DNA of 64,000 nucleotides from Klebsiella phage KP2025. Of the stretch, positions 9,908 through 28,402 are shown piece after piece (position 1 is the stretch's first letter; each line of letters starts with the position of its first letter). The notes beneath the pieces were generated by a model, which was not told where the DNA came from, made no database searches, and was given only the letters and a program-made list of their open reading frames with translations. A program made the position numbers and the translations under genes. Location of the stretch: the sequence record PP919962.1. One strand, 5' to 3'.

Positions 9908-9909
9908 CT

Positions 9910-10762: not shown

Positions 10763-10774
10763 GTTTCCTCCTTA

Positions 10775-11338: not shown

Positions 11339-11531
11339 GTTTTGTTTCCTCGCTTAAAGTGTTAATACATTGATTGTTATCTAACGAGTAGCAAAAAACT
11401 GGCTTCTCGTCTTTACTGATGCTAATACTACCACCGCTTACCACTGCTGTCAATGCTACAACTAAAATAAATAAACCTACACCGAAACAAATACTTTCAA
11501 ACACAAACCACACTGCTTTCAGGATTTTCAC
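11325..11531 (-). CDS. small membrane protein (68 aa, GTG start)
   Basis: hydrophobic helix; RBS AAGGAG; start overlaps upstream stop as GTGA. Confidence 0.4.
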   Translation of the reverse strand: MKILKAVWFVFESICFGVGLFILVVALTAVVSGGSISISKDEKPVFCYSLDNNQCINTLSEETKHEQN

Positions 11532-11707
11532 TGCTGCACTCCTTCATTAATGCACTGACTATAGCGCAGATATAGATTATCATTACCTGCCTCAAAATTA
11601 CGAATTTGCTGCGTACACTCTTGGTAAGTGAGGTGTGGGACAGTTAAATGTTCCGTACCTCCATTTGAGTTGGTTGCAATGCTCCAAATCAGAATCAAAG
11701 TATACAT
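11528..11707 (-). CDS. small protein (59 aa) missed by ORF track
   Basis: AGGAGAGAAACATG RBS; MYTLILIWSIATN hydrophobic N-terminus. Confidence 0.4.
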   Translation of the reverse strand: MYTLILIWSIATNSNGGTEHLTVPHLTYQECTQQIRNFEAGNDNLYLRYSQCINEGVQQ

Positions 11708-11748
11708 GTTTCTCTCCTGTAGAAAGCCTCCCGAAGGAGGCTATTTCA

Positions 11749-12729
11749 TTAAGCTGTTGCTTCTTCTTTCTCAGGGAAGACCAGACTTGCCAGTACACCC
11801 AGCGCCAGAGTACCCAGTACGATATACAGACTTACGTTAGCTGAGATATCGTGTGGCATGAACGCCCACTTAGCATGTAACGCTTCGCCAAACGGGTGAT
11901 ACATCAATTTCGCACCTACAAATACCAGAACTACAGCTACTGCTTTCTCCAGGTGAACCAGATACTTAACCGCAACACTTAGTACGAAGAACAGAGCACG
12001 TAAACCCAGGATTGCGAAGAGCATCGCAGAGTAAACTAGCAGAGGTTCTTGTGTCACACCGATCACCGCAGGTACAGAGTCGAAGGAGAAAATCACATCA
12101 GTGAATTCTACTACGAACACACACAGCAGTGCTGGAGTTGCATATTTAATACCATTTTTAATCGTGATGAACTTCTCACCATCCAGAGCGGGATGAACTG
12201 GAAGAATCTTACCAACCAGACGAGTCGCCCAGTGTTTAGAGTAATCAACTTCATCTTCCTCATCATCACCGCCTTTGATAATAGCCAGTGCAGACCATGC
12301 TACAATCAGACCGAACAGCACTTGGAAAAACCAGTGTAAATTAAAGATTGCCGTACCTGCTGCCACAAAGATACCTCGAAATACAATGGCACCAGCAATA
12401 CCCCAAAGTAGAATCTTATGCTGTAAGTGTGTTGATTTAATACCGAAACTCGCAAAGATTGCCATGAATACCATCAGGTTATCCACCGACAACGACTTCT
12501 CTAAAACATACCCACTCAAGAACAGGGATGCAAATTCTTTACCGTACTCAATCCAGATGAATGCGTAGTAACCAAACGCTAGGGCAATCCAGAACACCGA
12601 CCAGAGCAATGCGCTCTTGATACCGATTTCTTTATTTTCCTTATGCCCGAAAAAATCAACTACAATTGACAGTGCCAGCACACCTACGAGCACAGCAATG
12701 TCCAACAGTGGGAATCCAAAATGGTGCAT
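11749..12729 (-). CDS. terC: TerC-family integral membrane protein
   Basis: Multiple TM helices; LSVDNLMVFMAIF and EFTDVIFSFDSVPAV signature motifs of the TerC family. Confidence 0.75.
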   Translation of the reverse strand: MHHFGFPLLDIAVLVGVLALSIVVDFFGHKENKEIGIKSALLWSVFWIALAFGYYAFIWIEYGKEFASLFLSGYVLEKSLSVDNLMVFMAIFASFGIKSTHLQHKILLWGIAGAIVFRGIFVAAGTAIFNLHWFFQVLFGLIVAWSALAIIKGGDDEEDEVDYSKHWATRLVGKILPVHPALDGEKFITIKNGIKYATPALLCVFVVEFTDVIFSFDSVPAVIGVTQEPLLVYSAMLFAILGLRALFFVLSVAVKYLVHLEKAVAVVLVFVGAKLMYHPFGEALHAKWAFMPHDISANVSLYIVLGTLALGVLASLVFPEKEEATA

Positions 12730-13076: not shown

Positions 13077-13176
13077 CTCATTTCGTCTTGATGTAATGAA
13101 GTTTACGCTCTTCTCAGATTAAGTCAACAATTATTTTCAAAATAATTAAGCCTCCCGTAGGAGGCTCATGTTCCAA

Positions 13177-13397: not shown

Positions 13398-13859
13398 CTA
13401 ATTTAATTTAAAAATAGTAACTTCCAGACCTTTGGCGACGAGTGTCTCCTGAATCATAGCTTCAACTACAGACCACTTTCCGCCAGCTAATCCACAACCA
13501 ATGAGAGGGAGTCCTACCGTCTTCCCGCCACATGCAATTACGTCATCACCCATTGCGTCCAATGCATCAAAGATAGCGTCATAGTCTAAGTCACGAATAC
13601 CTGAATCACGTTTACTGTAGCCGTACTGTCCGTACAGATTGTAGACGGTTAGTTCACCATCCTCTACAATAGCTTTCGTGAAGGTTCCCAGTTTCGTGCT
13701 ATCACCTTTACGTGTTGCACAATCAGCAGCATACACTTCGGGCCATTCTTTTTTAATCTTAGGGGCTATGCCCTTGCCCATCGTGCAAAAACAATTGCAG
13801 CAGTGCCCAATAGCATCTACTTCAGCTTGAAGCAGATCTCCGATTTTATACTTTATCAT
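13398..13859 (-). CDS. macro-domain (ADP-ribose binding/processing) protein
   Basis: GDLLQAEVDAIGHCCN...GKGIA and CGGKTVGLPLIGCGLAGG resemble macro-domain ADP-ribose pocket motifs. Confidence 0.55.
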   Translation of the reverse strand: MIKYKIGDLLQAEVDAIGHCCNCFCTMGKGIAPKIKKEWPEVYAADCATRKGDSTKLGTFTKAIVEDGELTVYNLYGQYGYSKRDSGIRDLDYDAIFDALDAMGDDVIACGGKTVGLPLIGCGLAGGKWSVVEAMIQETLVAKGLEVTIFKLN

Positions 13860-13868
13860 TCTTTCTCC

Positions 13869-14726
13869 TTACTTATTCAGAACATTACCTTCGAAGAAAT
13901 GATGAAGAAACGCAAAGTTCTCCTCATACTTCGTAATTTTATTATATCCTTCTGCCAAGCAACCAAAATACAACGCCTCAACGTAAGATAGTGGAAGTTG
14001 GCTCAGTGCTACCTTAAAGGTCACTTCTGGTTGGCTCATTAGGTATTTGATTGGACGAACCAAACACTGGGCATCAGGCTCATCTTTAATCATCTGCACG
14101 AAAGCGGAAATAGTGTTAATGTCACTGAAATTCAGTGCCGCTTCTGTGTTGGCCTCAGTCCCATTGTACTTGGCGAAGTAGAGGAAGAATGTGTCATTAG
14201 TTATATTCTCTGCATCTAAGATCTCAATGAGCTTGTCTTCGTGTGTTCCGGTAATATTTACATCATCGATGAAGATCAGGTTTTTGTTTCCCCAGAAATC
14301 TTTGTTGATCGAGAAAGTATCACCGTCAATCAGAGCTTTGCGGTCTTCCTTACTGAGGAAGCCATAATCATTGATATAACTCACCTTACGATGAATGATA
14401 TCCCACTCTACAGCCTTGCCATGATTACTGTTCACAGCTACCAAATGGTTAAGATGGTCTACAAAATGCTCTGAGAGCAACGTAGCGGCGTTTTTAACGT
14501 AGTTATAGGGCGAAGGTATCACCACAAACTGACTATGTACCAAACGGCTCCAGTGGGCCTCAAAGAAGCTTTCTGCAAGAATGCGCCCCATACGCTTAGC
14601 TGCTTGATTGCTACCAAACTTCAGCCGGGAATAATCCGCTGTATTGAAACCGGCATTTTCTAAGGTAGAAAAAGTATGGGCAAAGTGTTGAGTTTGATTA
14701 CGCATTAATGATTTCTCCTTTTTCAA
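13869..14726 (-). CDS. phosphoribosyltransferase (PRTase) family protein
   Basis: PRPP-binding motif LIFIDDVNITGTHEDKL (hhhhDD-x2-TG-x-T). Confidence 0.6.
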   Translation of the reverse strand: MKKEKSLMRNQTQHFAHTFSTLENAGFNTADYSRLKFGSNQAAKRMGRILAESFFEAHWSRLVHSQFVVIPSPYNYVKNAATLLSEHFVDHLNHLVAVNSNHGKAVEWDIIHRKVSYINDYGFLSKEDRKALIDGDTFSINKDFWGNKNLIFIDDVNITGTHEDKLIEILDAENITNDTFFLYFAKYNGTEANTEAALNFSDINTISAFVQMIKDEPDAQCLVRPIKYLMSQPEVTFKVALSQLPLSYVEALYFGCLAEGYNKITKYEENFAFLHHFFEGNVLNK

Positions 14727-15378
14727 GTTTCTCTAGTAGGTCTTGTGGGTTTTTAACATGACAAAACTTAAAACCTAAATCAACACATTTCCCATCATAA
14801 ATTTCACTATCTCCAATATGCAAAATTTCATAGTTCGCTAGGCTAGATAGCTTACTAGAAAGCAGAGTTTTAGCAAAGAATAAAATGTCAGGCTTACAAA
14901 GCAGATGTTCGTCCGAAAAATGCATAAAACTCCACCAAGGCATTCTATCAAAGCCTACAGCTTGAGACAAGATTCTACCTGAGATAAAGTTAGTATTGCT
15001 TTTGATACTCAATTCATACTTGTCATCGAGGCTTATTAATTGATCAACTAAATCTTCATTTAAACGTGGTGAGAATGCAAGAAAAGCTTCTTCACATTCG
15101 CGTTGCATTTGAGTAATTGCTTTTGGTTCCATGTTTAAATTTTTACCTAAAACATGCCAAGCAGTCGAGGTAAAACTACAAATACCTTTTTCTGCGTTTT
15201 GGTCTAAATATTTCTTTACCTTCCTATACATTGTACCTGCTTCACGATCAGTTACATTTGCATATTTTGCAATTATTTTAGTACGAATTTCACTATACCA
15301 AGGATTTGCAGTAATCAAAGTATTCCATACGTCAAAAGAGATGTGTTTGATTATCATATTAAGCCCACCATGCGTCAA
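14698..15378 (-). CDS. HAD-superfamily phosphatase-like protein
   Basis: ISFDVWNTLI (motif I-like) and HIGDSEIYD (motif IV GDxxxD); motif I is non-canonical. Confidence 0.5.
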   Translation of the reverse strand: MTHGGLNMIIKHISFDVWNTLITANPWYSEIRTKIIAKYANVTDREAGTMYRKVKKYLDQNAEKGICSFTSTAWHVLGKNLNMEPKAITQMQRECEEAFLAFSPRLNEDLVDQLISLDDKYELSIKSNTNFISGRILSQAVGFDRMPWWSFMHFSDEHLLCKPDILFFAKTLLSSKLSSLANYEILHIGDSEIYDGKCVDLGFKFCHVKNPQDLLEKLEKGEIINA

Positions 15379-15964
15379 GGTTTAAGTTACTGTCCACTAT
15401 CACTTGTTCTACGTGATAGCTTTTCATTTCAATTCCACTTTCCAGAAGCATACCATACGCCTCATTAAAACGCAACTTATCTTCTGCGGAATATAGACGC
15501 GCATTATAGAAGCGATAATCCACCTCTTCAGCATTGGAAGAGACACGGAAGAAGCCAGTGTCAATCTCCGGCGCACTTGCAGGAGTCTTGATATGAACTT
15601 CACCATAATGCTCTTTACTCAAATCCATAAACATTACACACGCAATGTGTCGGAACATCTGTTCCAGTTTATAGCGTACAACTTTGAATCCAGCGGCTTG
15701 CAGTTTTGCTACACAATCCAACATAAGATCTGTTTCGATACCTGCCTGGTACTTAGTTAGCATACGGTCACGCTGTGATTGTGTATCACGGTGCAGATCA
15801 ATTGTAGTACATTTTGCACCAATCAGTTTTGCTGCATCCATGAGTTGCTCACTACTTACGTCTGCTAATGTAAGATGAAAATGTGCTTTCCATACTTTAT
15901 CCACAGGAACACCGAGAGGTTCATCGTTAGTTTGTGGTAGGTTTGCGATCAGCCTATGTTGCAT
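15359..15964 (-). CDS. hypothetical protein (201 aa)
   Basis: ORF. Confidence 0.5.
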   Translation of the reverse strand: MQHRLIANLPQTNDEPLGVPVDKVWKAHFHLTLADVSSEQLMDAAKLIGAKCTTIDLHRDTQSQRDRMLTKYQAGIETDLMLDCVAKLQAAGFKVVRYKLEQMFRHIACVMFMDLSKEHYGEVHIKTPASAPEIDTGFFRVSSNAEEVDYRFYNARLYSAEDKLRFNEAYGMLLESGIEMKSYHVEQVIVDSNLNLDAWWA

Positions 15965-15974
15965 TGTTTTCTCC

Positions 15975-16184
15975 TTAAAAAGGTGAGCGTTCTAATTCGT
16001 CTGGTTCAATACCAATAATATTAGCGATATCTCTATCAGAAAGCAACTCCTTTCTTTGCAGAATTTCTACCAGCGTACCAAGCATTTCACGAGTATCTCG
16101 ATCACTGCTCTCTACCAAACCTTTTGCACTATCAATCTGGTCTTTATAAAAATAAAATTGAATCATAAATCCTCCAAACAACAA
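15975..16184 (-). CDS. hypothetical protein (69 aa)
   Basis: ORF. Confidence 0.4.
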   Translation of the reverse strand: MLFGGFMIQFYFYKDQIDSAKGLVESSDRDTREMLGTLVEILQRKELLSDRDIANIIGIEPDELERSPF

Positions 16185-16200
16185 AGGGGCTTTCGCCCCT
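16185..16200 (-). terminator. GGGGCGAAAGCCCC hairpin copy 3, followed by TTTGTTGTTTGG on minus strand
   Basis: between AAA+ ATPase gene end and next gene; TTGACA immediately upstream. Confidence 0.45.
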
Positions 16201-16216
16201 TGTCAATTACTTCAGC

Positions 16217-17377
16217 TTAGTAGCTACGACCCTGAAAAGCGTAGTCAGTGTAGCTTTTCTGCTCTTTTGTTTTGATAACCAGTTCGATGACATTCTCACC
16301 TTCTTTGAACATGAAGTGGAAGCCATCTACGCCCATACTCTTAACATTTTGCTCGTTGTAAGAGATGGTGAACAGGTCAGAATCCCAGTGCCAATCTTCT
16401 GTCTCGTCATCGTAGATATCGAGAGTAATGTTTTCCATTTCCGGCAGACGCGCCTTACCTTTGTGGTGTTTAACACGGAAGTCAAACGTGCGGCCAGCGA
16501 ACAGACGCTGCGGAGCCAGCTCGTAAAGTTCGTACTCGTCCGTAATGTCATCCTTACGCTCAACACCGTTCACCTTGAAGGTTACAATTTCCTTCGCAGA
16601 ACGAGTACCGCCATCATTGATGGTAATACCCATCAGGTTCAATGCATCGGTAAACTTATCGTCAGGATAACGATTCAGTTCTTCAACCAGGGACTGAACA
16701 ACGTCGAAGTTCAGATCAGAGGACAGGTTGTACAGGGTTTCAAAGTCACCCACGAACGCTTTGTTTTCCAAGTTTTTAGCTAAGTAATCATCCAGCGTGG
16801 ACTTAGGCAGTTTCTTATAGCTAAAGCTATAGAAGATACGGCTTGGTCGGTTACGCAGAAATTCAGACACATAACCATCGTTCTTAGTCAGAACGAACAG
16901 TTTGTTATAGCCACCTACACCATCCAACAGAGTAAGCAGACCGTCCTGATGCTCTTTCTCGGCGTACAGCTTATCAAATTCATCAACCATCACCATAACT
17001 GGTTGCTTGATCTTAGACATGAAGTTGATAAAATCTTCACCGTTGAACGGGCTACCGATGGAGATGGTAGGGATACCGATCTTACGCAGCGCTACAGAGA
17101 GCATTTTTGCTTGCAGAGTTTTACCGCTGCCTTTAGTACCTTCAAGAAGGATACCAGTGTTCTTACCTTGACGGCTCAGGAACGTTTTGATAATACGATC
17201 AGATTTATCGTCGGTATCACCGTAGGTTACACTTGGTACTTCCATATCGTTTTTAGGGTAAAGGAACCACTCGCCATGCTGAGTAACACCAATACCATAA
17301 GTACCCGCTGGAATTACATCGATATCAATACCAGACTTCTGACGCAGGAAGATTTGACTACCAAATTGTGTGAACAT
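16217..17377 (-). CDS. AAA+ ATPase (paralog 1)
   Basis: Walker A GILLEGTKGSGKT, Walker B VMVMVDEFDKL; start set at ATG 17377 with AAGGAGAAATACATG RBS; full-length paralog of 35348..36472. Confidence 0.7.
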   Translation of the reverse strand: MFTQFGSQIFLRQKSGIDIDVIPAGTYGIGVTQHGEWFLYPKNDMEVPSVTYGDTDDKSDRIIKTFLSRQGKNTGILLEGTKGSGKTLQAKMLSVALRKIGIPTISIGSPFNGEDFINFMSKIKQPVMVMVDEFDKLYAEKEHQDGLLTLLDGVGGYNKLFVLTKNDGYVSEFLRNRPSRIFYSFSYKKLPKSTLDDYLAKNLENKAFVGDFETLYNLSSDLNFDVVQSLVEELNRYPDDKFTDALNLMGITINDGGTRSAKEIVTFKVNGVERKDDITDEYELYELAPQRLFAGRTFDFRVKHHKGKARLPEMENITLDIYDDETEDWHWDSDLFTISYNEQNVKSMGVDGFHFMFKEGENVIELVIKTKEQKSYTDYAFQGRSY

Positions 17378-17444
17378 GTATTTCTCCTTCTTTCTCTTTA
17401 AAGTGTAGGAGAAGTATATCAACCTCTCCTATGAAAATCAACCC

Positions 17445-18410
17445 TTATTTTTTAAAAACTCGCCCAAGCTGTTTACCGCTATTGATCACCGTACCATCTT
17501 CGGCCTGGAAGTCCCAAGTACCGTCAATGTTGCGGAAGAAGTTAGAACGATTACCCACTTCGTGGATCACTACCGCCATCACCAGATCGGAGTTGATTTC
17601 CGACTCAATGCTCTCTTTGATGCCTTCTGTGATATCCCGCTCATATTGGATATACACCTTATCATCAATGATCTGCACACTACGAACATTCTTGAACGTA
17701 TAAACCTGCTGTGTGGTGTACAGCACCCGTACAATTGTCTTAGCAACAGTAGGTTTTTGACGATTACGTTTACGATAACGTGGGCGCGGGTTTTTTGCAG
17801 TAGCCTGCTCTGTAACACCATAGTGTTCTTTAAGCAATTTTAAAAATTCTTCATAGCTTACTAACACTTGATTTCCAGTAATACCCCTCATATAGCCATC
17901 AATACCACACTCATCCGAGAAATAGGTAACATGTTTATCTTCGTAATTCTCCACATAACGCATGAAACGACTTCCGTCACTCCAGAAAGTTTTACCTTGC
18001 TCACGACAAATTTCCACTAGGAGTTGGATTTCATTCGAGCCTACCGATTTTGTGAGGAAAGCTGCTTCATGAATTGTTGGTTTTACTTTTGGTTTTATTT
18101 TGTCCATAATAACGTCAAACATCTCCTGTCCTGTAATAGTTTTTGTTTGCATATCCCATTTCTGAATAGTTCCTAAGTCAGCACCATCCATAATACCTTT
18201 ACTATCAAAGAAGATATGAGAAAATGGAGGCTCTCGCCCATTGTCGTTTGTAATGAACATAGAACGAACATCTGCTACGCTGTACAAGTCCTCATCATCA
18301 CCAGAAAAAACTTTAGCCAAAGCTTCGAAAAAACGCTCTTCTTTATTTACACTGCGGGCATATGCCAGCACATCAATCTTCGAGGCATTAATACTTACTG
18401 GAATGGTCAT
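17445..18410 (-). CDS. hypothetical protein (321 aa)
   Basis: RBS AAAAGGAG before ATG. Confidence 0.55.
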   Translation of the reverse strand: MTIPVSINASKIDVLAYARSVNKEERFFEALAKVFSGDDEDLYSVADVRSMFITNDNGREPPFSHIFFDSKGIMDGADLGTIQKWDMQTKTITGQEMFDVIMDKIKPKVKPTIHEAAFLTKSVGSNEIQLLVEICREQGKTFWSDGSRFMRYVENYEDKHVTYFSDECGIDGYMRGITGNQVLVSYEEFLKLLKEHYGVTEQATAKNPRPRYRKRNRQKPTVAKTIVRVLYTTQQVYTFKNVRSVQIIDDKVYIQYERDITEGIKESIESEINSDLVMAVVIHEVGNRSNFFRNIDGTWDFQAEDGTVINSGKQLGRVFKK

Positions 18411-18684
18411 TATGTTCTCCTTTTAGTGTTTTCATGGCTTCTTCGTACCAAACATCAAAGTCAACTACTTCTCTGCCGCCTGGTTTCAAACCATTACCAT
18501 TTAAATCAAATTTATCCCCATCCATTTCAAGCCAACTATAACCACCACCCAATCCGGCAAAGAACATGTAGTCTTCAGCATCCTCCCAGAAAGTTGAACC
18601 CCGCAGATGCAATTCGTCAATAACTTCCTGAATTTTATCTTCTTCTATGTCCTTGTCGGAAAAACAGATTTTAAAAATATTCAT
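18388..18684 (-). CDS. hypothetical protein (98 aa)
   Basis: ORF. Confidence 0.45.
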   Translation of the reverse strand: MNIFKICFSDKDIEEDKIQEVIDELHLRGSTFWEDAEDYMFFAGLGGGYSWLEMDGDKFDLNGNGLKPGGREVVDFDVWYEEAMKTLKGEHNDHSSKY

Positions 18685-19115
18685 CCTAAGATCTCCTTAG
18701 CAATACTAGATGCCAGTTTACCATCATACTGATTAGGGAAGACAGTACGTAAGTGTTTCATCATATCTGGCATCTTACGCCCCTGCGCACGCATTGCTTC
18801 GGCAATTTCACGCAATGTTTCTTCGTCTAGCATTTCCGGTAGGTAATTTTCCAGTACGATAATATCGCGCTCTGCACGTTCGATACGAACTTGCGGTGCC
18901 GACACAGCTTTCAGGGATTCAAGTTCTTCTTTTGCATGAGCGATCCCTAGTTTAACGATACCAATCATAATGTCGTCTTCAGATTTACCCAGATTTGCTT
19001 TCTGAGTACGAGCGAGATCAAACTCACCGATAATGTTAGTTAACAAGGCAAATGCACCTTTATCCGTGGTGCGTGCCAGAATACGATCTGCTTTCATTTG
19101 AGTTACAATACTCAT
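18681..19115 (-). CDS. GatB/YqeY-domain protein
   Basis: Alignment-quality match over the length to the YqeY fold (TDKGAFALLTNIIGEF...IERAERDIIVLENYLP...). Confidence 0.65.
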   Translation of the reverse strand: MSIVTQMKADRILARTTDKGAFALLTNIIGEFDLARTQKANLGKSEDDIMIGIVKLGIAHAKEELESLKAVSAPQVRIERAERDIIVLENYLPEMLDEETLREIAEAMRAQGRKMPDMMKHLRTVFPNQYDGKLASSIAKEILG

Positions 19116-19417
19116 TCTTTCTCTCCTTCTAATTCAGCCTTTTGTGCTCGGATGCGTTCCAGGTAGGTGTCGAGGTGTTCTCCTTCATACTGCACATCAC
19201 CTTTACACATCATCATGCTCTTTTCAATGTTCTGTGCGAGTAGATGTGCTGCTAAGTTCGGGGCATCTTTCAAGATACAGCCTTTATCATACCAGACTTT
19301 ACCAATCTTGCAACCTTTATTTTCGTCAATTTTGCTCACTTCGCCCTTATGCCAGAACCAAGGGCTAACTTTACCCATAAAGAAAACAACCTCACATACC
19401 TCGAATGTATGTTCCAT
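19112..19417 (-). CDS. hypothetical protein (101 aa)
   Basis: ORF. Confidence 0.45.
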   Translation of the reverse strand: MEHTFEVCEVVFFMGKVSPWFWHKGEVSKIDENKGCKIGKVWYDKGCILKDAPNLAAHLLAQNIEKSMMMCKGDVQYEGEHLDTYLERIRAQKAELEGEKE

Positions 19418-19764
19418 TATTTGTCACCATAATGGTAGAAGTTAATGATTAGGTTCGTAGGATTATCATAGATACAAGTACCCTTTGGTACAGAGGCTAC
19501 AATCCAATCCCGAATCATTTTCCAGTCAACTAACTGGCTGGTCGCTTCAACGTGCAGAACTTTAGCTCCACCTATTTCATGAATCAGTGGTGCGATACAG
19601 ATAGGGCGACTGTCAATTTCTCCGAGAGTGATCAGTGAGCCACTCATGTCTTGCACATACTTATATCCAGCAGCAGTTAGCTCTCGGTAAATACCAATTG
19701 ACTCATAGCCAGAGTTAATTAACACTACAACATCCACAGATTGGAAATCTTTTTCATGAGACAT
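19417..19764 (-). CDS. hypothetical protein (115 aa)
   Basis: ORF. Confidence 0.45.
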   Translation of the reverse strand: MSHEKDFQSVDVVVLINSGYESIGIYRELTAAGYKYVQDMSGSLITLGEIDSRPICIAPLIHEIGGAKVLHVEATSQLVDWKMIRDWIVASVPKGTCIYDNPTNLIINFYHYGDK

Positions 19765-19804
19765 AGGTTTATCCTCGCTTAGAATGCCCCCGAAGGGGCA
19801 TGTA

Positions 19805-19996
19805 TTATTTCTTCAAACTGTCTTCAGTACCATCCCACTTCTCAACAAGTTCAATGAGTTGTTCTTTGGTCTTTGTCCAGCCAAGTTTCAAAAGTGACTC
19901 TACTTTAGCATCCACAGAAGGATCATGCAAGCCCTTTTCTACTTCTTGTTCAATCCAGGTTAACACTTTATGTAAAATTGCATTACCGTCCATCAA
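19805..19996 (-). CDS. hypothetical protein (63 aa)
   Basis: ORF overlapping helicase start by 4 nt. Confidence 0.4.
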   Translation of the reverse strand: MMDGNAILHKVLTWIEQEVEKGLHDPSVDAKVESLLKLGWTKTKEQLIELVEKWDGTEDSLKK

Positions 19997-22872
19997 TAAT
20001 CATCTCCCATGAAGTTATCTTGGTCTATCTTACGTTCGAGAATTTCTAAGAGATGACAGTCTCCAGATGATCCACTAAGCTCGGTTTTTAGTCGAGACAA
20101 ATTAGGCATCATATTTATTTCACCAAAGAAATCCCCTTCACCATCTTCTAGCCAACTTTCGTAGGCTTGGATATGGTTATCATTACCATCGAAACTGTCA
20201 GCTATAAACTGTTTTATTTGGTCTGGTGTTGTGTACGCAGCACCAAAAACACCTAAGCGAACATTTTCAATGGGGATGCCGCCGTTAAGCAGCTTCTCCT
20301 TTGGGGCAGTGTGTTTCTCTCCCTCCACACGCTTAATATCTATAATTTCCTGGACAGTACTATTCCATTGTAGACATTTTATACATCGTGTATGTGCTAC
20401 ATAGAGCAGATTACGCTCTGCTTCTTCAAGCCCTACCCACTCCCTTTCTTTATTATAGTTAGAAGGGAAGTCATTTGCAACAACAACTTGATCCCATTCT
20501 AAACCTTTTGATTTATGCGCTGTTGTAAGAGTTACCTTTGCAGTTGGTGAATTTCGATGTGTCCGTAGAGTATGTGCGATTGTATTAGCTTTACCGCTGA
20601 CAACAACGTTTAACAAACGTTTAGCATCAGGATCACTTTCTGCACAGTCTACAAATTCTTCCCAAGTGGCATAGGGCAGTACAGTTTCATGTTTTACTTT
20701 TTCAATATCCCCTCGACGTAAAGCATTCACGCTATCTACCATTGAGATAAAATCTTTGGTGTCAACGTTAATGATAATATCTTCACCATCTGCGATACGA
20801 TCCATTGCTTCCATAAGCAAAGTTAGATTTTTACGGAAGATGATTGTATATGGTTTAGTATAATCTACTATATCAGATACATAGCTGCCTACAATCGTAT
20901 CATAACCCTTACCAACTAAAGGATGTGCCAGAGGTTGTTTATCTTCTAAGATCATATTAGCGACATCTGCCACTTTTGGGCCAAAACGGAAACAAGCTGT
21001 AAGAGGAAGTTCGACACCATAGGTGGCGGTTTCAACCATCATATTAGAACTTCCCCGGAATTGATAGATACAATTGTGACTAAGAATATCATTGCCAAAA
21101 AAGTTAGCTGTATCTTCCACTTCAATATCATAATAGATACCCTCACTATCTACAATGTCCACAATTTCTTCTGCCGTTACAGTATCACCATCTTTTACCA
21201 ACACAGACATACCTTTAAATAAACCCGCCGCAGGAATTAAATTATATTTAGTAGTGTTCACAGAAGACATGCACTCTTTCAATGATGCAAATGGAACTAT
21301 CTCCAATACTTTATTAGCAAAAGTTAAAGCATCACGGTAAGAGCTAAAATACTTACGCACACGAAAACGACCTTCATTTTTCGCATTTGTCACCTTAATA
21401 CCGGATTGCGTTAAACTTTCTATGATGTTCATTTCTACTTCTGTCCACTCAAAGTGAACTTGGGTTCCTTTTTTACATTGTGCTCGCAAAGTCACTGTTA
21501 ACATTTTTCTTTCATCTGCTGCACAATTGAGGCTGTGCCAATGTGGATAAGCAAAATGATAATCTTTATCATCTAAAAGTTTAAAACCATTTTGTCCAAA
21601 TTGTTCAAAGATGTTATTGATCCTTTCTTGATTAATACCGCGTGAACTTGCTTCAAATACACAAGTAGGAATGCCATATTGTAAACTGTATGCCATTTCT
21701 TTTTCCATAGCCGCTTCACGGTTTTCAACAATATCCAACACCCACAATTTCTGTGCTCTTTCAGAACGTGTACGTTGCCCCAGTTTAGAAAAACCTTCTT
21801 TATCATCGAATTTGTTAGTGATCCCTACTCGGAAACCTAGATCTTTCCTCCACATTAGGTATACCACCATCTGATCATCTTTCAGGGCATAAGGTGAAGC
21901 CCAAATACGATGGTTATGTGTCATATCTAAAGTTTTACCCTTGGTAGTAATAATATTCCTACCTTTTGTACGTGTAGATAAAGTCTTATTTGTTACTTTT
22001 CTAAATGTAACTTTACCGTTAGAATAAGACTCTACCTTATCACCGATTTGCAGGTCTTTCATTGCAACCTGACCATTCTCGGTATTAAGTACCGTGTTTT
22101 CTGACGCACATTGGAATTCATCACCAACAACCACAATTCGTTTAGCTGCCTTGGCATTACGCAGAATGGATAAGAAAGCAGGGTTAACGTCCTGGAACTC
22201 ATCGCCAAAGATAATATCATACCCCAAGTCTTTACCGGACAATTCAAACAACTTGACATAAGTATCGTGCGTCATGATCGTCTCAGATTTAGGGTCAATA
22301 CGCTCACGCCAAAGCTGTTTAGCATATGTCACTACTTCAGTGATCAGTTTATTCTCATTAATGTTCTTACGCTTGAGGTCTGCGAGATAAACTGTAGGAA
22401 AATGCTTACGCCCCAGATGAGCATCATCTGAAAATTCAAACTTACCTACAGTTTGTTTAACCATCAGCCCAATCATTGCACGAGTGAGTAGGGTTTTACC
22501 ATTCTTATCAATCAAGTTATTGATTTTGAACTTCTTGGCAATCTCATTACCAGTACCTGCTACATTCACATATGCACCCTCTGGACGTGTCAACTTGTGA
22601 CGCAGAGATTGATCAAGTTGTTGATAGCAAATAGAGTGAAGAGTACGACACTCCACATTATCCGGCATCTTGCGTCGGGCTTCCTCTGCCATGCTCTTGT
22701 TGAATGCAAGATACAGAATCTTATCCTCTGTACCATTAGCCAACATATAGAGTGTTGATGTTTTACCACTACCAGATTTGGCTTGAATAGTAGTAAAACG
22801 GTTTTCTTTGAATGCACCTTCGATTGCAAATTGTTCATCCGTAGGTGTAAAACTTAGTTCACTCTTAGCCAT
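19993..22872 (-). CDS. UvrD/PcrA-family SF1 DNA helicase interrupted by an intein
   Basis: Walker A AKSGSGKT, DEFQD motif II, motif III VVVGDEFQ / CIYQFRGSS split by a 346-aa insertion. Confidence 0.75.
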   Translation of the reverse strand: MAKSELSFTPTDEQFAIEGAFKENRFTTIQAKSGSGKTSTLYMLANGTEDKILYLAFNKSMAEEARRKMPDNVECRTLHSICYQQLDQSLRHKLTRPEGAYVNVAGTGNEIAKKFKINNLIDKNGKTLLTRAMIGLMVKQTVGKFEFSDDAHLGRKHFPTVYLADLKRKNINENKLITEVVTYAKQLWRERIDPKSETIMTHDTYVKLFELSGKDLGYDIIFGDEFQDVNPAFLSILRNAKAAKRIVVVGDEFQCASENTVLNTENGQVAMKDLQIGDKVESYSNGKVTFRKVTNKTLSTRTKGRNIITTKGKTLDMTHNHRIWASPYALKDDQMVVYLMWRKDLGFRVGITNKFDDKEGFSKLGQRTRSERAQKLWVLDIVENREAAMEKEMAYSLQYGIPTCVFEASSRGINQERINNIFEQFGQNGFKLLDDKDYHFAYPHWHSLNCAADERKMLTVTLRAQCKKGTQVHFEWTEVEMNIIESLTQSGIKVTNAKNEGRFRVRKYFSSYRDALTFANKVLEIVPFASLKECMSSVNTTKYNLIPAAGLFKGMSVLVKDGDTVTAEEIVDIVDSEGIYYDIEVEDTANFFGNDILSHNCIYQFRGSSNMMVETATYGVELPLTACFRFGPKVADVANMILEDKQPLAHPLVGKGYDTIVGSYVSDIVDYTKPYTIIFRKNLTLLMEAMDRIADGEDIIINVDTKDFISMVDSVNALRRGDIEKVKHETVLPYATWEEFVDCAESDPDAKRLLNVVVSGKANTIAHTLRTHRNSPTAKVTLTTAHKSKGLEWDQVVVANDFPSNYNKEREWVGLEEAERNLLYVAHTRCIKCLQWNSTVQEIIDIKRVEGEKHTAPKEKLLNGGIPIENVRLGVFGAAYTTPDQIKQFIADSFDGNDNHIQAYESWLEDGEGDFFGEINMMPNLSRLKTELSGSSGDCHLLEILERKIDQDNFMGDDY
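21073..22110 (-). mobile_element. intein (Hint domain plus central linker/putative endonuclease region) inserted in helicase motif III
   Basis: Starts with Cys after GDEFQ, block B TLDMTHNHRIW, ends ...DILSHN followed by extein Cys (CIYQFRGS); aa 255-600 of the ORF. Confidence 0.6.
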
Positions 22873-23359
22873 TCAATCCTCTCTTAATTTCTTCCACTAA
22901 CATTGGAACCAGATCACGTTGTAAGATTTGTTCCATGATGTGAGATGGCAGCTTACGGAACTGCCAGTTGTATGCCACACTCCCGCCGTTCGGCGTATAC
23001 ACCCGTAGGTAGAGCATTTCGCGTAGTTTATCGACTTCAATATCATACTCGATAGATTCTAAGCGGTGCAAGGTGAGTTCCATTTTCAGGATACGTTCTT
23101 GCATCTCATAGGGCGTAGGGTTAAATGGCCCATAGCTGCGGACTGAGAAGCTACCATATGGAACTTCGCGAGTTTGTGGCATGAGGGTTGGGAAGTATTC
23201 TCCCAAAAGGTCACATGTCATTTGTAGACATTCGCGCTCCATTCTATTCTCATTACGACTATTATCAAGATCTCTCTGCAAATTATTTAATTGTTTTTCC
23301 TGTGCAGCCAGAGATTCACGCATTTTTCGTTTTTGATTTCTTCCAAATCGCTTGCTCAT
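22865..23359 (-). CDS. hypothetical protein (164 aa)
   Basis: ORF. Confidence 0.5.
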   Translation of the reverse strand: MSKRFGRNQKRKMRESLAAQEKQLNNLQRDLDNSRNENRMERECLQMTCDLLGEYFPTLMPQTREVPYGSFSVRSYGPFNPTPYEMQERILKMELTLHRLESIEYDIEVDKLREMLYLRVYTPNGGSVAYNWQFRKLPSHIMEQILQRDLVPMLVEEIKRGLNG

Positions 23360-23368
23360 TGTTCCTCC

Positions 23369-23905
23369 TCAATAGAATTTTTCTACCTGATGTAATCTTC
23401 TCATAGTGATCCATGCAAATTCCTGATTTAACTCTTCAGGTAAATTTGCCATAATGTAGGCATATTGTTCTTCCCATGTCCATTTATTAGGGTTATCAGG
23501 AATTTTATCTGAAGCTTTTGTATTATCTTTCTGAGTTTGAATAATCCAATTAGAAGGGAAATGAACACCACCCTTTTTGAAAGGCATGTAATGGCCTAGA
23601 GTGAAGCTACGCTTACCTTCCAGACCACCCAGTTTATTTAAGTGGATGATTAAGCTACGAAATACATAATATTCGTAGACATTATCTACAGTGTAGAAAG
23701 CATAATATTTTAAGATGCCTGTATCCCGTTTGAAATTATGCACATCCAAACTACACCAGTTAACATTGTCTGGATCATAACTGTGATTCTCAATCCATTC
23801 CTCACGTTCGTCCCATTCTGGATAAATTACAGATTGACTTGAAGAGTCCACTAAAGGGGAAAAAACATCAAAAAACATTATAATCTCCTTTAACTTAGTT
23901 TTCAA
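23369..23905 (-). CDS. hypothetical protein (178 aa)
   Basis: ORF. Confidence 0.5.
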   Translation of the reverse strand: MKTKLKEIIMFFDVFSPLVDSSSQSVIYPEWDEREEWIENHSYDPDNVNWCSLDVHNFKRDTGILKYYAFYTVDNVYEYYVFRSLIIHLNKLGGLEGKRSFTLGHYMPFKKGGVHFPSNWIIQTQKDNTKASDKIPDNPNKWTWEEQYAYIMANLPEELNQEFAWITMRRLHQVEKFY

Positions 23906-24260
23906 TATCTACCAAAGCATTTCCCACCTTAAGTAAGATAATATCGTTGACAGCATCCTCATCATCTCCTTCTATCTGGGCAAACTTTTCGGTTGCAAAC
24001 ATAACCATATAATGTTCATCCATCTGGAAGACTTTCATATAACCATCCAGTTTAATCTCTTCGCTGAAACGGAAACTGAGGAACTTTTCAGACAGAGGAT
24101 GATCCCCTGAGCGGGCTAGTGCCATCGTATTTGGCGGGATGACATATTTATCAGATCCTACGTAGACATAAGTGTCCTGTTCACCATAGCTATACAGTGT
24201 TGCAGCTTTATCTTGAATCACGGATAAAGAAAAAATATCAAAATCTTCTACTGTTTTCAT
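23895..24260 (-). CDS. hypothetical protein (121 aa)
   Basis: ORF. Confidence 0.5.
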   Translation of the reverse strand: MKTVEDFDIFSLSVIQDKAATLYSYGEQDTYVYVGSDKYVIPPNTMALARSGDHPLSEKFLSFRFSEEIKLDGYMKVFQMDEHYMVMFATEKFAQIEGDDEDAVNDIILLKVGNALVDIEN

Positions 24261-24270
24261 GACACACTCC

Positions 24271-24522
24271 TTACTTGAAAATAAAATAAATAACTACACA
24301 AGCAATAAAAGTAAATAATAAACCTTTACCTGAAGTTCTGCTTCTTTTTGTCTCATAACTCAAGCCTATGCCATGAGCGCCTACCGTGTGCTTGACACCC
24401 TTACTATTGATGTTGGAAGTAAACCACCCAGCTTTTACACTTGTTGAATTTATTCCCTTTTTACCGAGATTAATATACACCCCAGGTATAATTTTAATTC
24501 TCTTTCTAAAGCGAAACCCCAT
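24271..24522 (-). CDS. small membrane protein (83 aa)
   Basis: C-terminal TM helix. Confidence 0.4.
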   Translation of the reverse strand: MGFRFRKRIKIIPGVYINLGKKGINSTSVKAGWFTSNINSKGVKHTVGAHGIGLSYETKRSRTSGKGLLFTFIACVVIYFIFK

Positions 24523-24896
24523 TAAAAATTTTCCTCCCAGTTCCAGTAATCGTCTTTATAATTTCTCCTGTTATATTCTTTCCTAGCCCATTCTACGGCA
24601 GCAACGAGAACATCCCCATGACAAGCAACCTCTTTATTAGGTTGTTTACAAAAGCAAACTAAGTCTTTTCCTTCTAATGCTAATAAGTCTTCCAATGTTA
24701 TCTTACCAGAGCGAATCTGCTCCCACAACCATTCTTTATACCGTTGTATAGTAGCACCACGAGGCTCATCCTCGGTTAGCTTAAATGGATTAGCAAACTT
24801 AGAAGCCTTCAGACCATAATGAGGCATTGCCCGTCCGATATACTCTGCGCCAGGAGGAATAACTTTTCCAAGGTGGTAGAAATTTAAAACTTTCAT
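24522..24896 (-). CDS. DUF4326-family protein
   Basis: KVLNFYHLGK...YIGRAMP...GNPF...LVCFCKQP..CHGDVL matches the DUF4326 pattern. Confidence 0.5.
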   Translation of the reverse strand: MKVLNFYHLGKVIPPGAEYIGRAMPHYGLKASKFANPFKLTEDEPRGATIQRYKEWLWEQIRSGKITLEDLLALEGKDLVCFCKQPNKEVACHGDVLVAAVEWARKEYNRRNYKDDYWNWEENF

Positions 24897-25255
24897 TTCT
24901 TTTCATCCTCCTTATATTCCAAGAATAAGTCTACCTCATATGTGTGTCTCTGATCAAATTTATTTGGGTCAAGAACAATAAAAAGAACACGATTAATATC
25001 GAGATATTCTTTCACAACAATGAACAGGTCTTTGCGGCAAGAGAATCCGGTGGCTTTAAAGGCATCGCCCCACTGGTCTACAGACTTTACACTCTTATCC
25101 AGTTTACAGCGAATGTCCTTACCTTCGTCTTGGTATAAAGCTACACCACCGTACCAGGTGAAGAATTTAGTGCCATTGGCAACCACTTTGAATCCTTCCC
25201 GCGCATTCACGCCAGTAGAAATGAGCAGCGTGATCACCAATAGCAACTTAATCAT
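24893..25255 (-). CDS. secreted protein (120 aa, signal peptide)
   Basis: MIKLLLVITLLISTGVNA signal sequence. Confidence 0.5.
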   Translation of the reverse strand: MIKLLLVITLLISTGVNAREGFKVVANGTKFFTWYGGVALYQDEGKDIRCKLDKSVKSVDQWGDAFKATGFSCRKDLFIVVKEYLDINRVLFIVLDPNKFDQRHTYEVDLFLEYKEDEKK

Positions 25256-25533
25256 TCAATCTCCAGTCGTTTACGTTTATCAAAAACAACATCATACTTA
25301 TCACCACACCCATTGTCAACATAAAACTTGATAAACTGGTCATCCTGTTCCACTGTATACCCAACTTCCAAACACAAGCCGTTGCCTGTATCTTCCAAAA
25401 TATCCTCAACTAAGTGACTATAAAGGATACTATCACCAGTGAATGCCCAGAAGTAGTCTGAGAGATTTTCGAAAGATAAGTTCAGTTCAGGATTTTCTTG
25501 GTGAAGTTTAACTGCCTTTGTTAAATAACTCAT
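25252..25533 (-). CDS. hypothetical protein (93 aa)
   Basis: ORF. Confidence 0.45.
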   Translation of the reverse strand: MSYLTKAVKLHQENPELNLSFENLSDYFWAFTGDSILYSHLVEDILEDTGNGLCLEVGYTVEQDDQFIKFYVDNGCGDKYDVVFDKRKRLEIE

Positions 25534-25754
25534 TCAACCTCCTCAAAATCCCAAAGATTTCCGTTTAATGGGCAACCATAGGCACCAACAAAGCCCGCTT
25601 CATTTGTCATCATGTAATCTCCATCTTCATCGTAACCTAGGATAGTATATTCGTTGCCTTTAATAAAGGCATGACTACGGGAGTCATCACGAGTACATCT
25701 TAAAGTAGACCCAATTGGAATTACTCTAGTTTCTTTATTTTCTACATGATTCAT
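25530..25754 (-). CDS. small protein, paralog family member (74 aa)
   Basis: ATG with GAGGAGAG RBS; pattern ...RC...Y.V.G...G.......ND.G......W.FEEVE shared with 26601..26915 and 27109..27333. Confidence 0.45.
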   Translation of the reverse strand: MNHVENKETRVIPIGSTLRCTRDDSRSHAFIKGNEYTILGYDEDGDYMMTNEAGFVGAYGCPLNGNLWDFEEVE

Positions 25755-25886
25755 AATTCTCTCCTCACTTCTACATGTCGCCAGGTGGCAAGATAATGTT
25801 CTTAAGAGCCACTTGCGCCGGACTAAGATTTGTGTACAGACAAACTGGCTCGCTGTCCCAACCCATTCTCCCATACAGGGAGTATT

Positions 25887-26582
25887 TTACTTGTTTTGCT
25901 TGCGCCATTGGTACACTCCAAACAGAGAGTTAAGCAGATATGCAACCCACATCGCCAACACTGCCGCTCCTCCGCCCTCGTGGTGCATGGTAGCCTGAAT
26001 CCACATGACGACGGCTACAATGTTTACCAACACCCAGGCGTACCATTGCTCCGCATAGCGGTACATCATCAGAGTTGTAGCCAGGATGGACAGAATCGCT
26101 GTAGCGGAGTCTAACCCAGGTATACTACCTTTCAGTTCAGCTACGAAGAGAGCATACACCCCAATCGCTACCAGCGTACCAATTGTTACCCAAACACGTT
26201 GTTTGGTGGTAAGCCATTTCTTTTCAACATCGGCACGATCCCCGTTTACGTTGAGTTTGCGACTCCAAACGACAGCACCCCAAAACTGCATCGGAAGGAA
26301 GACCAGTGTGTACATGATCGCTTCTCCGAAGAGTTGGTACTTATAGGAGATCCATGCGTACAGTGCGGTGGCTATTACGCCCCACCAGTAGCTGGAGATT
26401 TTACCCTTGGCTACCAGAATTGCACCGACGATACCTGTTACAGAGGAGATAAACTCCAGAGCAGAACTTTTCATCAGGATTGAGGTTGCAGCGATAGCCG
26501 CCGTACAAACGAACAGCCATACATACTCTAACTTTGTCCACCCGTAGAAATCTGTCCAGGTTGATTTAACGTATAAATTCAT
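25887..26582 (-). CDS. pnuC: PnuC-family nicotinamide riboside transporter
   Basis: About 7 TM helices; W-rich motifs (YWWGVIATALYAWISY, FWGAVVW) typical of PnuC. Confidence 0.65.
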   Translation of the reverse strand: MNLYVKSTWTDFYGWTKLEYVWLFVCTAAIAATSILMKSSALEFISSVTGIVGAILVAKGKISSYWWGVIATALYAWISYKYQLFGEAIMYTLVFLPMQFWGAVVWSRKLNVNGDRADVEKKWLTTKQRVWVTIGTLVAIGVYALFVAELKGSIPGLDSATAILSILATTLMMYRYAEQWYAWVLVNIVAVVMWIQATMHHEGGGAAVLAMWVAYLLNSLFGVYQWRKQNK

Positions 26583-26600
26583 GTTTACCTCCTCGTAAGG

Positions 26601-26915
26601 TTAGTCTTTTTTCGTGCGCCCTTGCGCTAAACCTTCCAGTGCTTCTTCGCGAGTCATTACGCGACCAGCCGCTACGTCAGCTTGGGAGAGTTCCAGCAGT
26701 TTGATTAGAGCCTCAGTTTGCTCATCTTCATCAACTGGTTCAAAGCCCCAAATAGCCCCATCCATCGGGATAGGAATAGGATCAAGATCGCCTTGGTTAT
26801 CACGCAACAGCATACCATTTACCCCTGCCAACCCTTCCACTTCGTAGAGAGTACCTACAGAGTAGAGTGATTCGCTATCACTACGAATACATCTTACACG
26901 AGTACCGATTTTCAT
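26601..26915 (-). CDS. small protein, paralog family member (104 aa)
   Basis: see 25530..25754. Confidence 0.45.
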   Translation of the reverse strand: MKIGTRVRCIRSDSESLYSVGTLYEVEGLAGVNGMLLRDNQGDLDPIPIPMDGAIWGFEPVDEDEQTEALIKLLELSQADVAAGRVMTREEALEGLAQGRTKKD

Positions 26916-26924
26916 GCAACCCCC

Positions 26925-27098
26925 TTAGAGTCTTTCGAATTCAATTTTGGCAAGGTGCATCTCTTTAACAGGAACAAACCCGTTGTAACCGTCAACAATC
27001 CACTCTTTACCATGTCTAACAACAATTTCATATTCACGCAGTTCCAGTTTAGGTACTGCTCGTTCTGTAGCCACCACTTTAAGACGTTTTCCAGACAT
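26925..27098 (-). CDS. small protein (57 aa) missed by ORF track
   Basis: AAGGAG RBS before ATG. Confidence 0.35.
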   Translation of the reverse strand: MSGKRLKVVATERAVPKLELREYEIVVRHGKEWIVDGYNGFVPVKEMHLAKIEFERL

Positions 27099-27108
27099 TG
27101 TCAACTCC

Positions 27109-27333
27109 TTACTCTACGATCTCCCAAACACCAAACAAGCATTCTGGATACAAAGCATAAATCTTAACGCCACGATCATTGGTAAGAATCATACCATTTT
27201 CCCCCACAGTACCACCAAAAACAATATCAGGATCACCAGATCCAGCTTCAACAGTATACAAACGGTCTTCTGTAATATAATCAAACCGGGATTGAACACA
27301 ACGTACAACATTACCTTTCTTCATTACTCGCAT
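27109..27333 (-). CDS. small protein, paralog family member (74 aa)
   Basis: see 25530..25754; ends GVWEIVE. Confidence 0.45.
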   Translation of the reverse strand: MRVMKKGNVVRCVQSRFDYITEDRLYTVEAGSGDPDIVFGGTVGENGMILTNDRGVKIYALYPECLFGVWEIVE

Positions 27334-27334
27334 A

Positions 27335-28402
27335 TTAATTCTCCTCTAAGAGCTTGTCAATGGCTTTGATAGCCTGATTGATACGATTTTCATAGTCCGT
27401 ACCAGTAATATGTACTACCGGAACGTCACGGTATAGGTCATGCACCATGTCCCACAATAAAGTGTTAGTGTACTCTCGCTTACTATCTGTATCTTGCAGA
27501 CGGAGAGGATCAGCCACCCATTCCACTTCTGGGGAAAGGTATAACACCATATCATAGAAGTTATGAGCTTCTTCAACAGCTAACGACATAAACATACCAT
27601 CATTATAGCCCACTTTACCAGCACAAATTGCAGAAAAATGCGTTATAAGATTGGTTGTATCTGAAATATGCACCACATGTGCCTGATTTGAGTTACTAAA
27701 TTCCTCAATACGATGGATCATAGCAATCTTAAGATATGCTTCACGATCCATTAAAAATTCACTGCCATTGTACATCTGTTCGCAAATATGCCGCCCTACT
27801 TCGGGTGTTGATGTTGTTCCATAGTGTTGTGCTAGAAGCTCAGTCATAGTGGATTTGCCAGTGCTCTCAACACCAATGATAGCTACACGTTTTACAAAAC
27901 GAGGACGAGCTTGATCTGACAGATAATCGAAGTTGTCGCGTAGATTAGTACGAATACGTGTTGCAGAGATATCCACTCCTGTACGCTCTGCATCCAACAC
28001 AACATGCTCCACCTCCGGGAAATGCTCAGAGAAGTATTCAGTATACTCCGGCTCAGAAGAGAAAGCATGAGTGAGGATCTCACCTTCTGGGATTTTAGCA
28101 CGAATCAACTCGGCATAAGCCTTACCACCTTCTGGATAGCCAGGGATATTAGACTCATCAACATAATCTACAATCACTCTGTGTTGTAATCCTGAATCTT
28201 GAATTAAAGATTTAAGATCCAATAAACGCTGGGTTAAACCAAGACGGTCTTGCATCCAAGGTGTTTGAGTGTTGTTAAACTTCTGGTCAAACGACAGAAA
28301 CAGGTATAGCCGATCAATACCTGAATCTACAGCCATACGAATGAAGTTGACGTGTCCTGCTGTTAGTGGTGCAAATTTACCGAAAATTAAGCCTACGTTC
28401 AT
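27335..28402 (-). CDS. nadR: NadR-like bifunctional NMN adenylyltransferase / ribosylnicotinamide kinase (no HTH domain)
   Basis: N-terminal nucleotidyltransferase motif GKFAPLTAGHVNFI (H-x-GH); C-terminal P-loop GVESTGKST as in NadR kinase domain. Confidence 0.75.
   Translation of the reverse strand: MNVGLIFGKFAPLTAGHVNFIRMAVDSGIDRLYLFLSFDQKFNNTQTPWMQDRLGLTQRLLDLKSLIQDSGLQHRVIVDYVDESNIPGYPEGGKAYAELIRAKIPEGEILTHAFSSEPEYTEYFSEHFPEVEHVVLDAERTGVDISATRIRTNLRDNFDYLSDQARPRFVKRVAIIGVESTGKSTMTELLAQHYGTTSTPEVGRHICEQMYNGSEFLMDREAYLKIAMIHRIEEFSNSNQAHVVHISDTTNLITHFSAICAGKVGYNDGMFMSLAVEEAHNFYDMVLYLSPEVEWVADPLRLQDTDSKREYTNTLLWDMVHDLYRDVPVVHITGTDYENRINQAIKAIDKLLEEN

Follow-up and report, generated by a model that had tools for sequence, protein, structure and literature searches.

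Do five genes found within about 15 kb of Klebsiella phage KP2025, encoding a macro domain protein, a phosphoribosyltransferase (PRTase), a hydrolase of the HAD superfamily, a PnuC transporter and a NadR-like enzyme, make up a single toolkit for rebuilding nicotinamide adenine dinucleotide (NAD+), or do they belong to separate systems? The window considered here is the whole stretch of DNA that was analysed, 64,000 nucleotides (nt) of record PP919962.1, and positions are those of the window except where a related locus is named. An earlier note on this DNA had joined all five genes into one NAD+ salvage and reconstitution toolkit directed against NAD+-depleting defences. The five open reading frames (ORFs) are indeed present, all on the minus strand, and the interpretation placed on them is partly supported: its NAD+ component is correct yet describes a system that is already known, and the remainder is better assigned elsewhere. 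With a probability of roughly 70%, the flagged genes fall into three independent modules, namely a NARP3 counter-defence pair, a macro domain protein of the AdfM type and a HAD-PRTase_3 pair linked to Ter genes. The single toolkit is favoured by none of the comparative evidence.

The 15-kb region shares 94.9% nucleotide identity across 83% of its length with Klebsiella phage KP13-26 and approximately 91-93% identity with phages phi1_175008 and FKP3, all three of which are myophages of ~145 kb in the Stephanstirmvirinae. The KP2025 window thus represents a Klebsiella myophage of this subfamily.

Assignment of the PnuC and NadR-like pair to NARP3

NARP3 consists of the PnuC-like nicotinamide riboside (NR) transporter Bas30_87 and the NadR-like enzyme Bas30_86, which has no helix-turn-helix (HTH) domain, both from Escherichia phage TrudiRoth (Yan et al., Sci Adv 2026; PMC13464706). 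The Bas30_86/87 pair restored NAD+ and rescued phages from the Sir2-HerA and DSR1 defences in an NR-dependent manner, Klebsiella included, and was otherwise near cost-free; in the described members the two genes are directly adjacent (PMC13464706, August 2026).

The KP2025 NadR-like protein (27335..28402, minus strand) is predicted to be a bifunctional enzyme with nicotinamide mononucleotide (NMN) adenylyltransferase (NMNAT) and ribosylnicotinamide kinase (RNK) activities (NF005988, 1.5e-51). Its alignment to NF005988 spans model positions 65-408 of 411 and, because it begins only at position 65, the protein lacks the HTH domain. An AAA_28 kinase domain occupies residues 172-340, and motifs were recorded at residues 8, 145 and 177, the first and last being GKFAPLTAGH and GVESTGKST, so that the earlier description of an enzyme carrying both of these motifs and no repressor domain was accurate. 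The best match in the PDB is the Bas30_86 structure (9X6F/9X6H; E=2.1e-52, 36.6% identity, 336 aligned residues), with 9X6F aligning end to end and covering residues 3-352 of the phage protein. A residue-by-residue comparison, for which the chain offset was verified, found 12 of the 17 Bas30_86 residues named by Yan et al. to be identical; these comprise every residue that disables Bas30_86 when mutated (K10, F11, S37, E80, P84, G89, F110, S112, V139, I141, E230, and D275).

The PnuC-type NR transporter (25887..26582, minus strand) matches PF04973 over the full model (1.5e-39), scores 116.9 bits against TIGR01528, for which the cutoff is 42.45, and aligns with the Neisseria mucosa PnuC structure 4QTN at E=3.4e-39. 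It shares 38% identity (E=7e-45) with PnuC from phage Sw2; the NadR of that phage and Bas30_86 are ~99% identical. Two of the NR-contact residues of Bas30_87, Q94 and N180, are conserved as Q99 and N187.

By analogy with the system in which these steps were shown, PnuC would bring NR into the cell, the C-terminal kinase domain of the NadR-like enzyme would phosphorylate it, and the resulting NMN would be joined to ATP by the adenylyltransferase domain at the N terminus to yield NAD+, thereby refilling a pool emptied by Sir2-, TIR- or DSR-type defences. The import and reconstitution route that had been proposed for the two genes, together with its counter-defence purpose, therefore corresponds to the NARP3 pathway. 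The resemblance extends to both protein families, the HTH-less NMNAT-RNK architecture, the retention in the enzyme of every residue found essential by mutation, a gene order in which nadR precedes pnuC on the same strand, and an enterobacterial host range with Klebsiella among the hosts. Relatives in GenBank already carry nadR and pnuC annotations on the two genes. In light of these correspondences the pair is assigned to NARP3, an already known system.

Several features set the pair apart from the described NARP3 or weigh against this assignment. Identity to the characterized proteins is just ~37% for the enzyme and 38% for the transporter, and KP2025 is a Stephanstirmvirinae myophage whereas the Bas30 phage is a T5-like member of the Demerecviridae. 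The enzyme scores 175.8 against an NCBIfam equivalog cutoff of 201 and differs from Bas30_86 by D115E and by K163P, D164R, R167K, and K168R, the last four being charged (basic or acidic) positions in the modelled NR pocket. The third NR-contact residue of the transporter, N45 in Bas30_87, is G50 in the window protein; Gly is also found at the equivalent position of N. mucosa PnuC, for which NR transport is proven. The case for the KP2025 proteins is, moreover, one of sequence and model comparison. The two genes had also been described as neighbours, and this part stands only loosely: both are present, and they are set apart by 733 nt holding three small ORFs of 104, 59, and 74 amino acids (26601..27333, minus strand), one of which encodes DUF7244. 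Across this interval strand and order are maintained, and a pattern scan of that strand detected only one weak terminator-like hairpin (5 pairs, 27243-27230). Split versions are also found in KP13-26, with two intervening ORFs, and in the Vequintavirinae phage Mydovirus Seu621, with five. Two DUF7244 paralogues (25530-25874 and 26601-26915; 30% identity, E=3e-7) flank pnuC.

The pair could alternatively be an auxiliary metabolic function that raises NAD+ for phage replication without being dedicated to counter-defence, the biochemistry being identical in either case. In its favour, NadR-like genes are present in 745 phage records of widely differing kinds and have long been annotated as auxiliary metabolic genes. 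This explanation is nevertheless considered unlikely, given that the homologous Bas30 pair acted specifically on Sir2-HerA and DSR1 hosts and that the module is accessory within the subfamily, the region of the relative FKP3 containing no pnuC, which is the pattern expected of conflict genes. The FKP3 NadR homolog (L002 17893-19899), annotated as an 'RNA ligase', is itself interrupted by an intein of ~312 amino acids in the Walker A loop of the kinase domain (GVES|C...N|CGKST).

The NARP2 or KVP40-type salvage pathway, composed of the NAMPT NadV and the NMNAT-Nudix protein NadM/NatV, likewise ends in NAD+ through adenylylation of NMN; it starts from nicotinamide by way of a type II PRTase, whereas the precursor in KP2025 would be imported NR. 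No NAMPT, NMNAT-Nudix, Adps or Namat was detected among the scanned window ORFs, which included all those of at least 178 amino acids.

A macro domain protein of the AdfM type

The macro, PRTase and HAD genes form an unbroken run with one 9-nt gap and one 29-nt overlap, and their adjacency and domain content had been correctly recorded; it is the NAD+ salvage function attributed to the three that is not upheld. The macro gene (13398..13859, minus strand; Pfam Macro, 3.7e-6) encodes a stand-alone domain and a predicted ADP-ribosyl glycohydrolase of the subclass containing T4 Tk.4/AdfM and SCO6735/BT1257. It matches the NCBIfam model for the N-terminal macro domain of DarG at 1.1e-16, and its closest solved relatives are BT1257 (2FG1, 2.6e-18) and SCO6735 (5E3B, 7.8e-17), followed by TARG1 (6e-11) and DarG (7e-9), while T4 Tk.4 is 32% identical (E=6e-21). 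Structures of ADP-ribose-1''-phosphatases match at E~0.09-0.8 only. On these grounds the protein is placed in the TARG1/DarG/SCO6735/T4-Tk.4 (ALC1-like) class and not among the Poa1p-like ADP-ribose-1''-phosphatases.

SCO6735 strips DarT-installed ADP-ribose from DNA thymidines, and mutation of its Gln85 abolishes this activity. Residues Q78, H19, N22, and K29 of the KP2025 protein align with Q85, H24, N27, and K34 of SCO6735, so that the catalytic-position Gln and the H/N/K substrate residues shared by AdfM, DarG2, SCO6735 and BT1257 are retained in a domain of similar size (~150 amino acids). In a 2025 preprint Tk.4 was named AdfM, and T4 was found to require it on DarTG2 hosts. The most likely role of the KP2025 protein is therefore reversal of DarT2 ADP-ribosylation of DNA and not salvage: it would take off the ADP-ribose that DarT2-type toxins place on thymidines of phage DNA. 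We infer that it serves as a counter to an NAD+-consuming defence rather than as a salvage step. DarG2 differs in having a DarT-binding domain, which the KP2025 protein lacks.

A parallel to the salvage proposal is offered by NARP1 and its extension NARP1-AP, in which Adps and Namat are accompanied by the macro phosphatase Adpp (Osterman et al.). The likeness lies in the association of a macro protein with an enzyme of the phosphoribosyl-transfer type in a phage engaged in NAD+ conflict. Adps is, however, PRPP-synthetase-like and Namat NAMPT-like, and the KP2025 PRTase_3 is neither; similarly, Adpp is a Poa1p-like macro protein whereas that of KP2025 is DarG/TARG1-like. The Adpp gene lies no more than two genes away from those for Adps and Namat, a setting that is absent here, as no Prs-like or NAMPT-like ORF was found among the scanned window ORFs.

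With respect to gene context, the macro family is represented in 2,888 of 50,697 phage records, most of which lack PRTase_3, and in relatives of KP2025 an HNH gene or another ORF has been inserted between the macro and PRTase genes. The neighbors in the window are PRTase_3 and a 70-amino-acid ORF. Set against the separation of the two modules is the finding that the macro gene adjoins the PRTase/HAD pair in all Stephanstirmvirinae loci examined; the KP2025 subfamily is in this respect unlike T4 Tk.4, which is not found beside such a pair. The macro gene may, then, still have some functional link with the PRTase/HAD pair.

The PRTase_3/HAD pair and the Ter cluster

The PRTase gene (13869..14726, minus strand) encodes PRTase_3, a ComF-like phosphoribosyltransferase of type I that carries an additional helical domain at its C terminus (PF15610, 4.1e-41, 257 of 264 model positions). 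Thirty-four homologous sequences, down to 47% identity, share 51 invariant positions, including the DDVxITGTHE loop that binds phosphoribosyl pyrophosphate (PRPP). An AlphaFold2 model (pLDDT 92.4) consists of a type I PRTase core plus the helical domain, and its top Foldseek matches are 6-oxopurine PRTases (HG(X)PRT), ComF and PyrR. Compared by sequence with solved structures, NAMPT-type enzymes included, PRTase_3 gave no match.

Overlapping this gene by 29 nt is that of its partner, a HAD-superfamily hydrolase (14698..15378, minus strand) identified through TIGR02252 (2.8e-7), phrog_14393 'hydrolase' (2.8e-90) and PDB entry 2OM6 (0.004). The KP2025 protein has no Pfam match at 0.01; homologs at other loci match PF00702/PF13419. 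In an alignment of 46 loci HAD motifs I-IV are recognizable; the nucleophile Asp is conserved, as are motifs II-IV. Motif I, however, reads DVWNT: the general acid/base Asp+2 is replaced by Trp in nearly every one of the 46 sequences, which makes a simple phosphatase role uncertain. Of 47 loci drawn from phages, metagenomes and bacteria, 46 have a HAD gene abutting PRTase_3 on its upstream side. Automated GenBank labels on relatives are misleading, PRTase_3 appearing as 'DNA methyltransferase' or 'Zot-like toxin' (L001 7022-7858, L002 7157-7993). One Rhizobium plasmid (L021) carries two PRTase_3 copies, and next to one of these no HAD gene was detected.

Immediately downstream of the flagged genes lies a complete phage-borne Ter cluster (6156-12729), with Ter genes 1-8 kb from the pair and on the same strand. 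It encodes TerD (6156..6758; PF02342, 9.7e-29), a vWA-TerF-like protein (6854..7648; PF10138, 1.1e-41), TelA (8222..9319; PF05816, 4.1e-34), an SprT-like metallopeptidase (9329-9907) and a TerC/Alx-family membrane protein (11749..12729; PF03741, 6.3e-41; TIGR03718, 2.5e-95, above cutoff). ATP-grasp, TerB, TerY-kinase-phosphatase and other accessory Ter genes were not detected in the window. The cluster had been overlooked by the earlier note, as had the gene that overlaps the HAD gene (15359-15964) and a DUF4326 gene (24522-24896).

Association with Ter genes is not confined to KP2025. Counts of Ter context were made with iterated profiles, tblastn alone having under-detected Ter genes, and in the 24 loci outside the Stephanstirmvirinae and Rhizobiales Ter genes were found within 10 kb of the pair in 14; NadR was this close in one and PnuC in none. 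Taken over the 47 loci, PRTase_3 keeps company with the HAD gene and Ter genes and not with NadR or PnuC. In unrelated phage contigs it is embedded in Ter clusters, for example in the order TelA-vWA-TerC-HAD-PRTase-TerD, and a Dysgonomonas locus includes genes for PP2C and a kinase, as Ter systems typically do.

A Ter biosynthetic module in which a PRTase and a HAD enzyme make a nucleoside-like metabolite was reportedly predicted by Anantharaman, Iyer and Aravind in 2012. PRTases and HAD enzymes have since been listed as the signal- or metabolite-making component of phage Ter systems (Iyer et al., 2021; PMC7824862). KP2025 resembles this module in having a PF15610 PRTase and a HAD hydrolase near TerD, vWA-TerF, TelA and TerC, in a layout similar to that reported for Acinetobacter phage ME3 and to those of several metagenomic phages; it differs in that an additional phrog_22504 gene and the macro gene flank the pair and in that the HAD enzyme lacks Asp+2. 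A metabolite-synthesis module of the phage Ter cluster, which had been mentioned in passing as a second reading of the two genes, is accordingly the better-supported one, with Ter neighbors both in the window and at unrelated loci. PRTase_3, as a type I enzyme, would join a base to PRPP, and the HAD enzyme would then act on what is formed, presumably removing a phosphate, to give a nucleoside-like metabolite whose role may be tied to the membrane-associated Ter proteins. As far as literature searches found, such a metabolite has never been demonstrated for any member of the Ter module.

Fourteen loci from Rhizobium, Sinorhizobium and Ensifer hold the pair without Ter genes and so count against an obligate connection, indicating that the pair can function without them. 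The gene context in Ensifer (aminotransferases, LysE, a ClpP-like gene) offered no functional clue; in Ensifer aridi the ClpP-like gene follows the HAD-PRTase_3 pair. Such loci would also suit a different explanation, in which the pair belongs to ordinary nucleotide metabolism, salvaging or making an unusual nucleoside for phage DNA synthesis or base modification with no Ter-linked signal. The pair lies beside DCD/dUTPase and a second PRTase at one locus (L007), in Rhizobium phage Y65 it adjoins genes for DHFR, a Nudix protein and a PurA-like enzyme, and the PRTase_3 fold is nearest to purine PRTases. Yet it is Ter genes (TerD, TerC, TelA and vWA-TerF) that recur around the pair in phages, Bacteroidales and an actinobacterium, and their order varies, which suggests functional linkage rather than inherited synteny, and no DNA-modification genes are evident beside the pair in the window. 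A purely nucleotide-metabolic role is accordingly judged quite improbable, and the Ter-linked module is retained.

One toolkit or separate modules

Several observations lend a single toolkit its appeal. All five lie in one co-oriented early-gene block of ~15 kb, macro domains handle ADP-ribose, and a macro phosphatase extends NARP1 in other phages. A stand-alone DUF4326 gene (24522..24896, minus strand; PF14216, 2.3e-18) sits between the two clusters, and DUF4326 has been proposed to form a rhodanese-phosphatase clade acting on the terminal phosphates of ADP-ribose products (Iyer et al., 2022; PMC9503650). In one jumbo-phage contig (L041) a NadR homolog is situated 8.8 kb from the pair. Cooperation would require the macro protein to process ADP-ribose products, the PRTase to make NMN (or NAD+) from nicotinamide, and the HAD enzyme to trim phosphate, with PnuC and NadR adding the NR route. 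Such a scheme is very doubtful. The PRTase is of type I, with the structural matches described above; a phosphatase acting on NMN would reverse the salvage; the macro protein is of the DarG/TARG1-like and not the Poa1p-like subclass; and the pair is embedded in the Ter clusters of unrelated lineages. The distributions also diverge, as ~130 Stephanstirmvirinae records have the pair at >60% identity and only five phage records have a close (>80% identity) NadR. A further candidate link between the pair and NAD+, an 'NMN adenylyltransferase/NUDIX' neighbor in Rhizobium phage Y65, was rejected, being a weak Nudix match with no NMNAT domain.

Two terminator-like hairpins, both found by pattern matching on the minus strand, bracket a predicted transcription unit comprising orf69, the 201-amino-acid gene, HAD, PRTase, macro and orf70. 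The hairpin that closes the unit (13147..13168) has a 9-pair stem with five GC pairs; the other (16184..16201) is upstream of it, following an AAA/nSTAND3-like ATPase gene (16217-17422) that directly precedes the unit.

The 201-amino-acid protein (15359..15964, minus strand; phrog_22504), the gene for which overlaps the start of the HAD gene, consists of an uncharacterized domain. It has few close relatives, and a full profile search extended the family to 239 clusters, among which the domain is fused repeatedly to NUDIX and once each to a SpoT-type HD domain and an HTH domain. Invariant motifs are HxHxT, RDR, RxK, ExHxK, and RFYNxR, and in another phage contig a homolog overlaps an Acb1 gene (L052 7001-8021). 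We regard it as a candidate nucleotide-ligand domain belonging to phage conflict loci. No support was found for the 'MazG-like' label that relatives carry in GenBank.

This predicted unit allows a more speculative proposal, in which orf69, phrog_22504, HAD, PRTase_3 and macro constitute a fourth and chemically new route in NAD+/ADP-ribose conflict. PRTase_3 might, for example, re-attach nicotinamide or another base to a ribose-phosphate set free by defence enzymes, with the atypical HAD enzyme and the Nudix/HD-associated phrog_22504 protein processing the intermediates and either feeding the NadR enzyme or destroying an ADP-ribose-derived immune signal. We regard this as a long shot, and three independent modules remain the preferred interpretation.

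Other features of the region

Over the first ~32 kb of the window all genes lie on the minus strand. At ~32400 the GC skew changes sign and transcription reverses, so that genes left of this point are on the minus strand and those right of it on the plus strand. The right arm consists mostly of small ORFs; it also encodes a DUF6939 protein (36855-37475) and a CapR + T5orf172 protein (55888-57108). A second AAA/nSTAND3-like ATPase gene (35348-36472) lies across the switch from the first. A UvrD-like helicase gene (19993-22872) contains a 346-amino-acid intein (nt 21073-22110) within the motif GDEFQ|C...SHN|CIYQFRG, and its 613-amino-acid homolog in phi1_175008 has none. A 321-amino-acid protein without a Pfam match (L001 10587-11558) is labelled 'ribonucleotide reductase' in a GenBank relative, which is again misleading. 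No tRNA genes were found in the window.

Implications

If these assignments are correct, a single early-gene block of KP2025 stacks three conflict modules, for NAD+ rebuilding, de-ADP-ribosylation and Ter functions. The PRTase_3/HAD pair shows striking conservation, with ~50% identity across unrelated phages, and its compact phage version would be a convenient one in which to identify a product that has been predicted since 2012. NARP3 would reach a second phage lineage, one that infects a priority pathogen, in a split-gene form, and its spread is relevant to forecasting which of the Klebsiella phages used in therapy can evade defences of the Sir2, TIR and DSR types.

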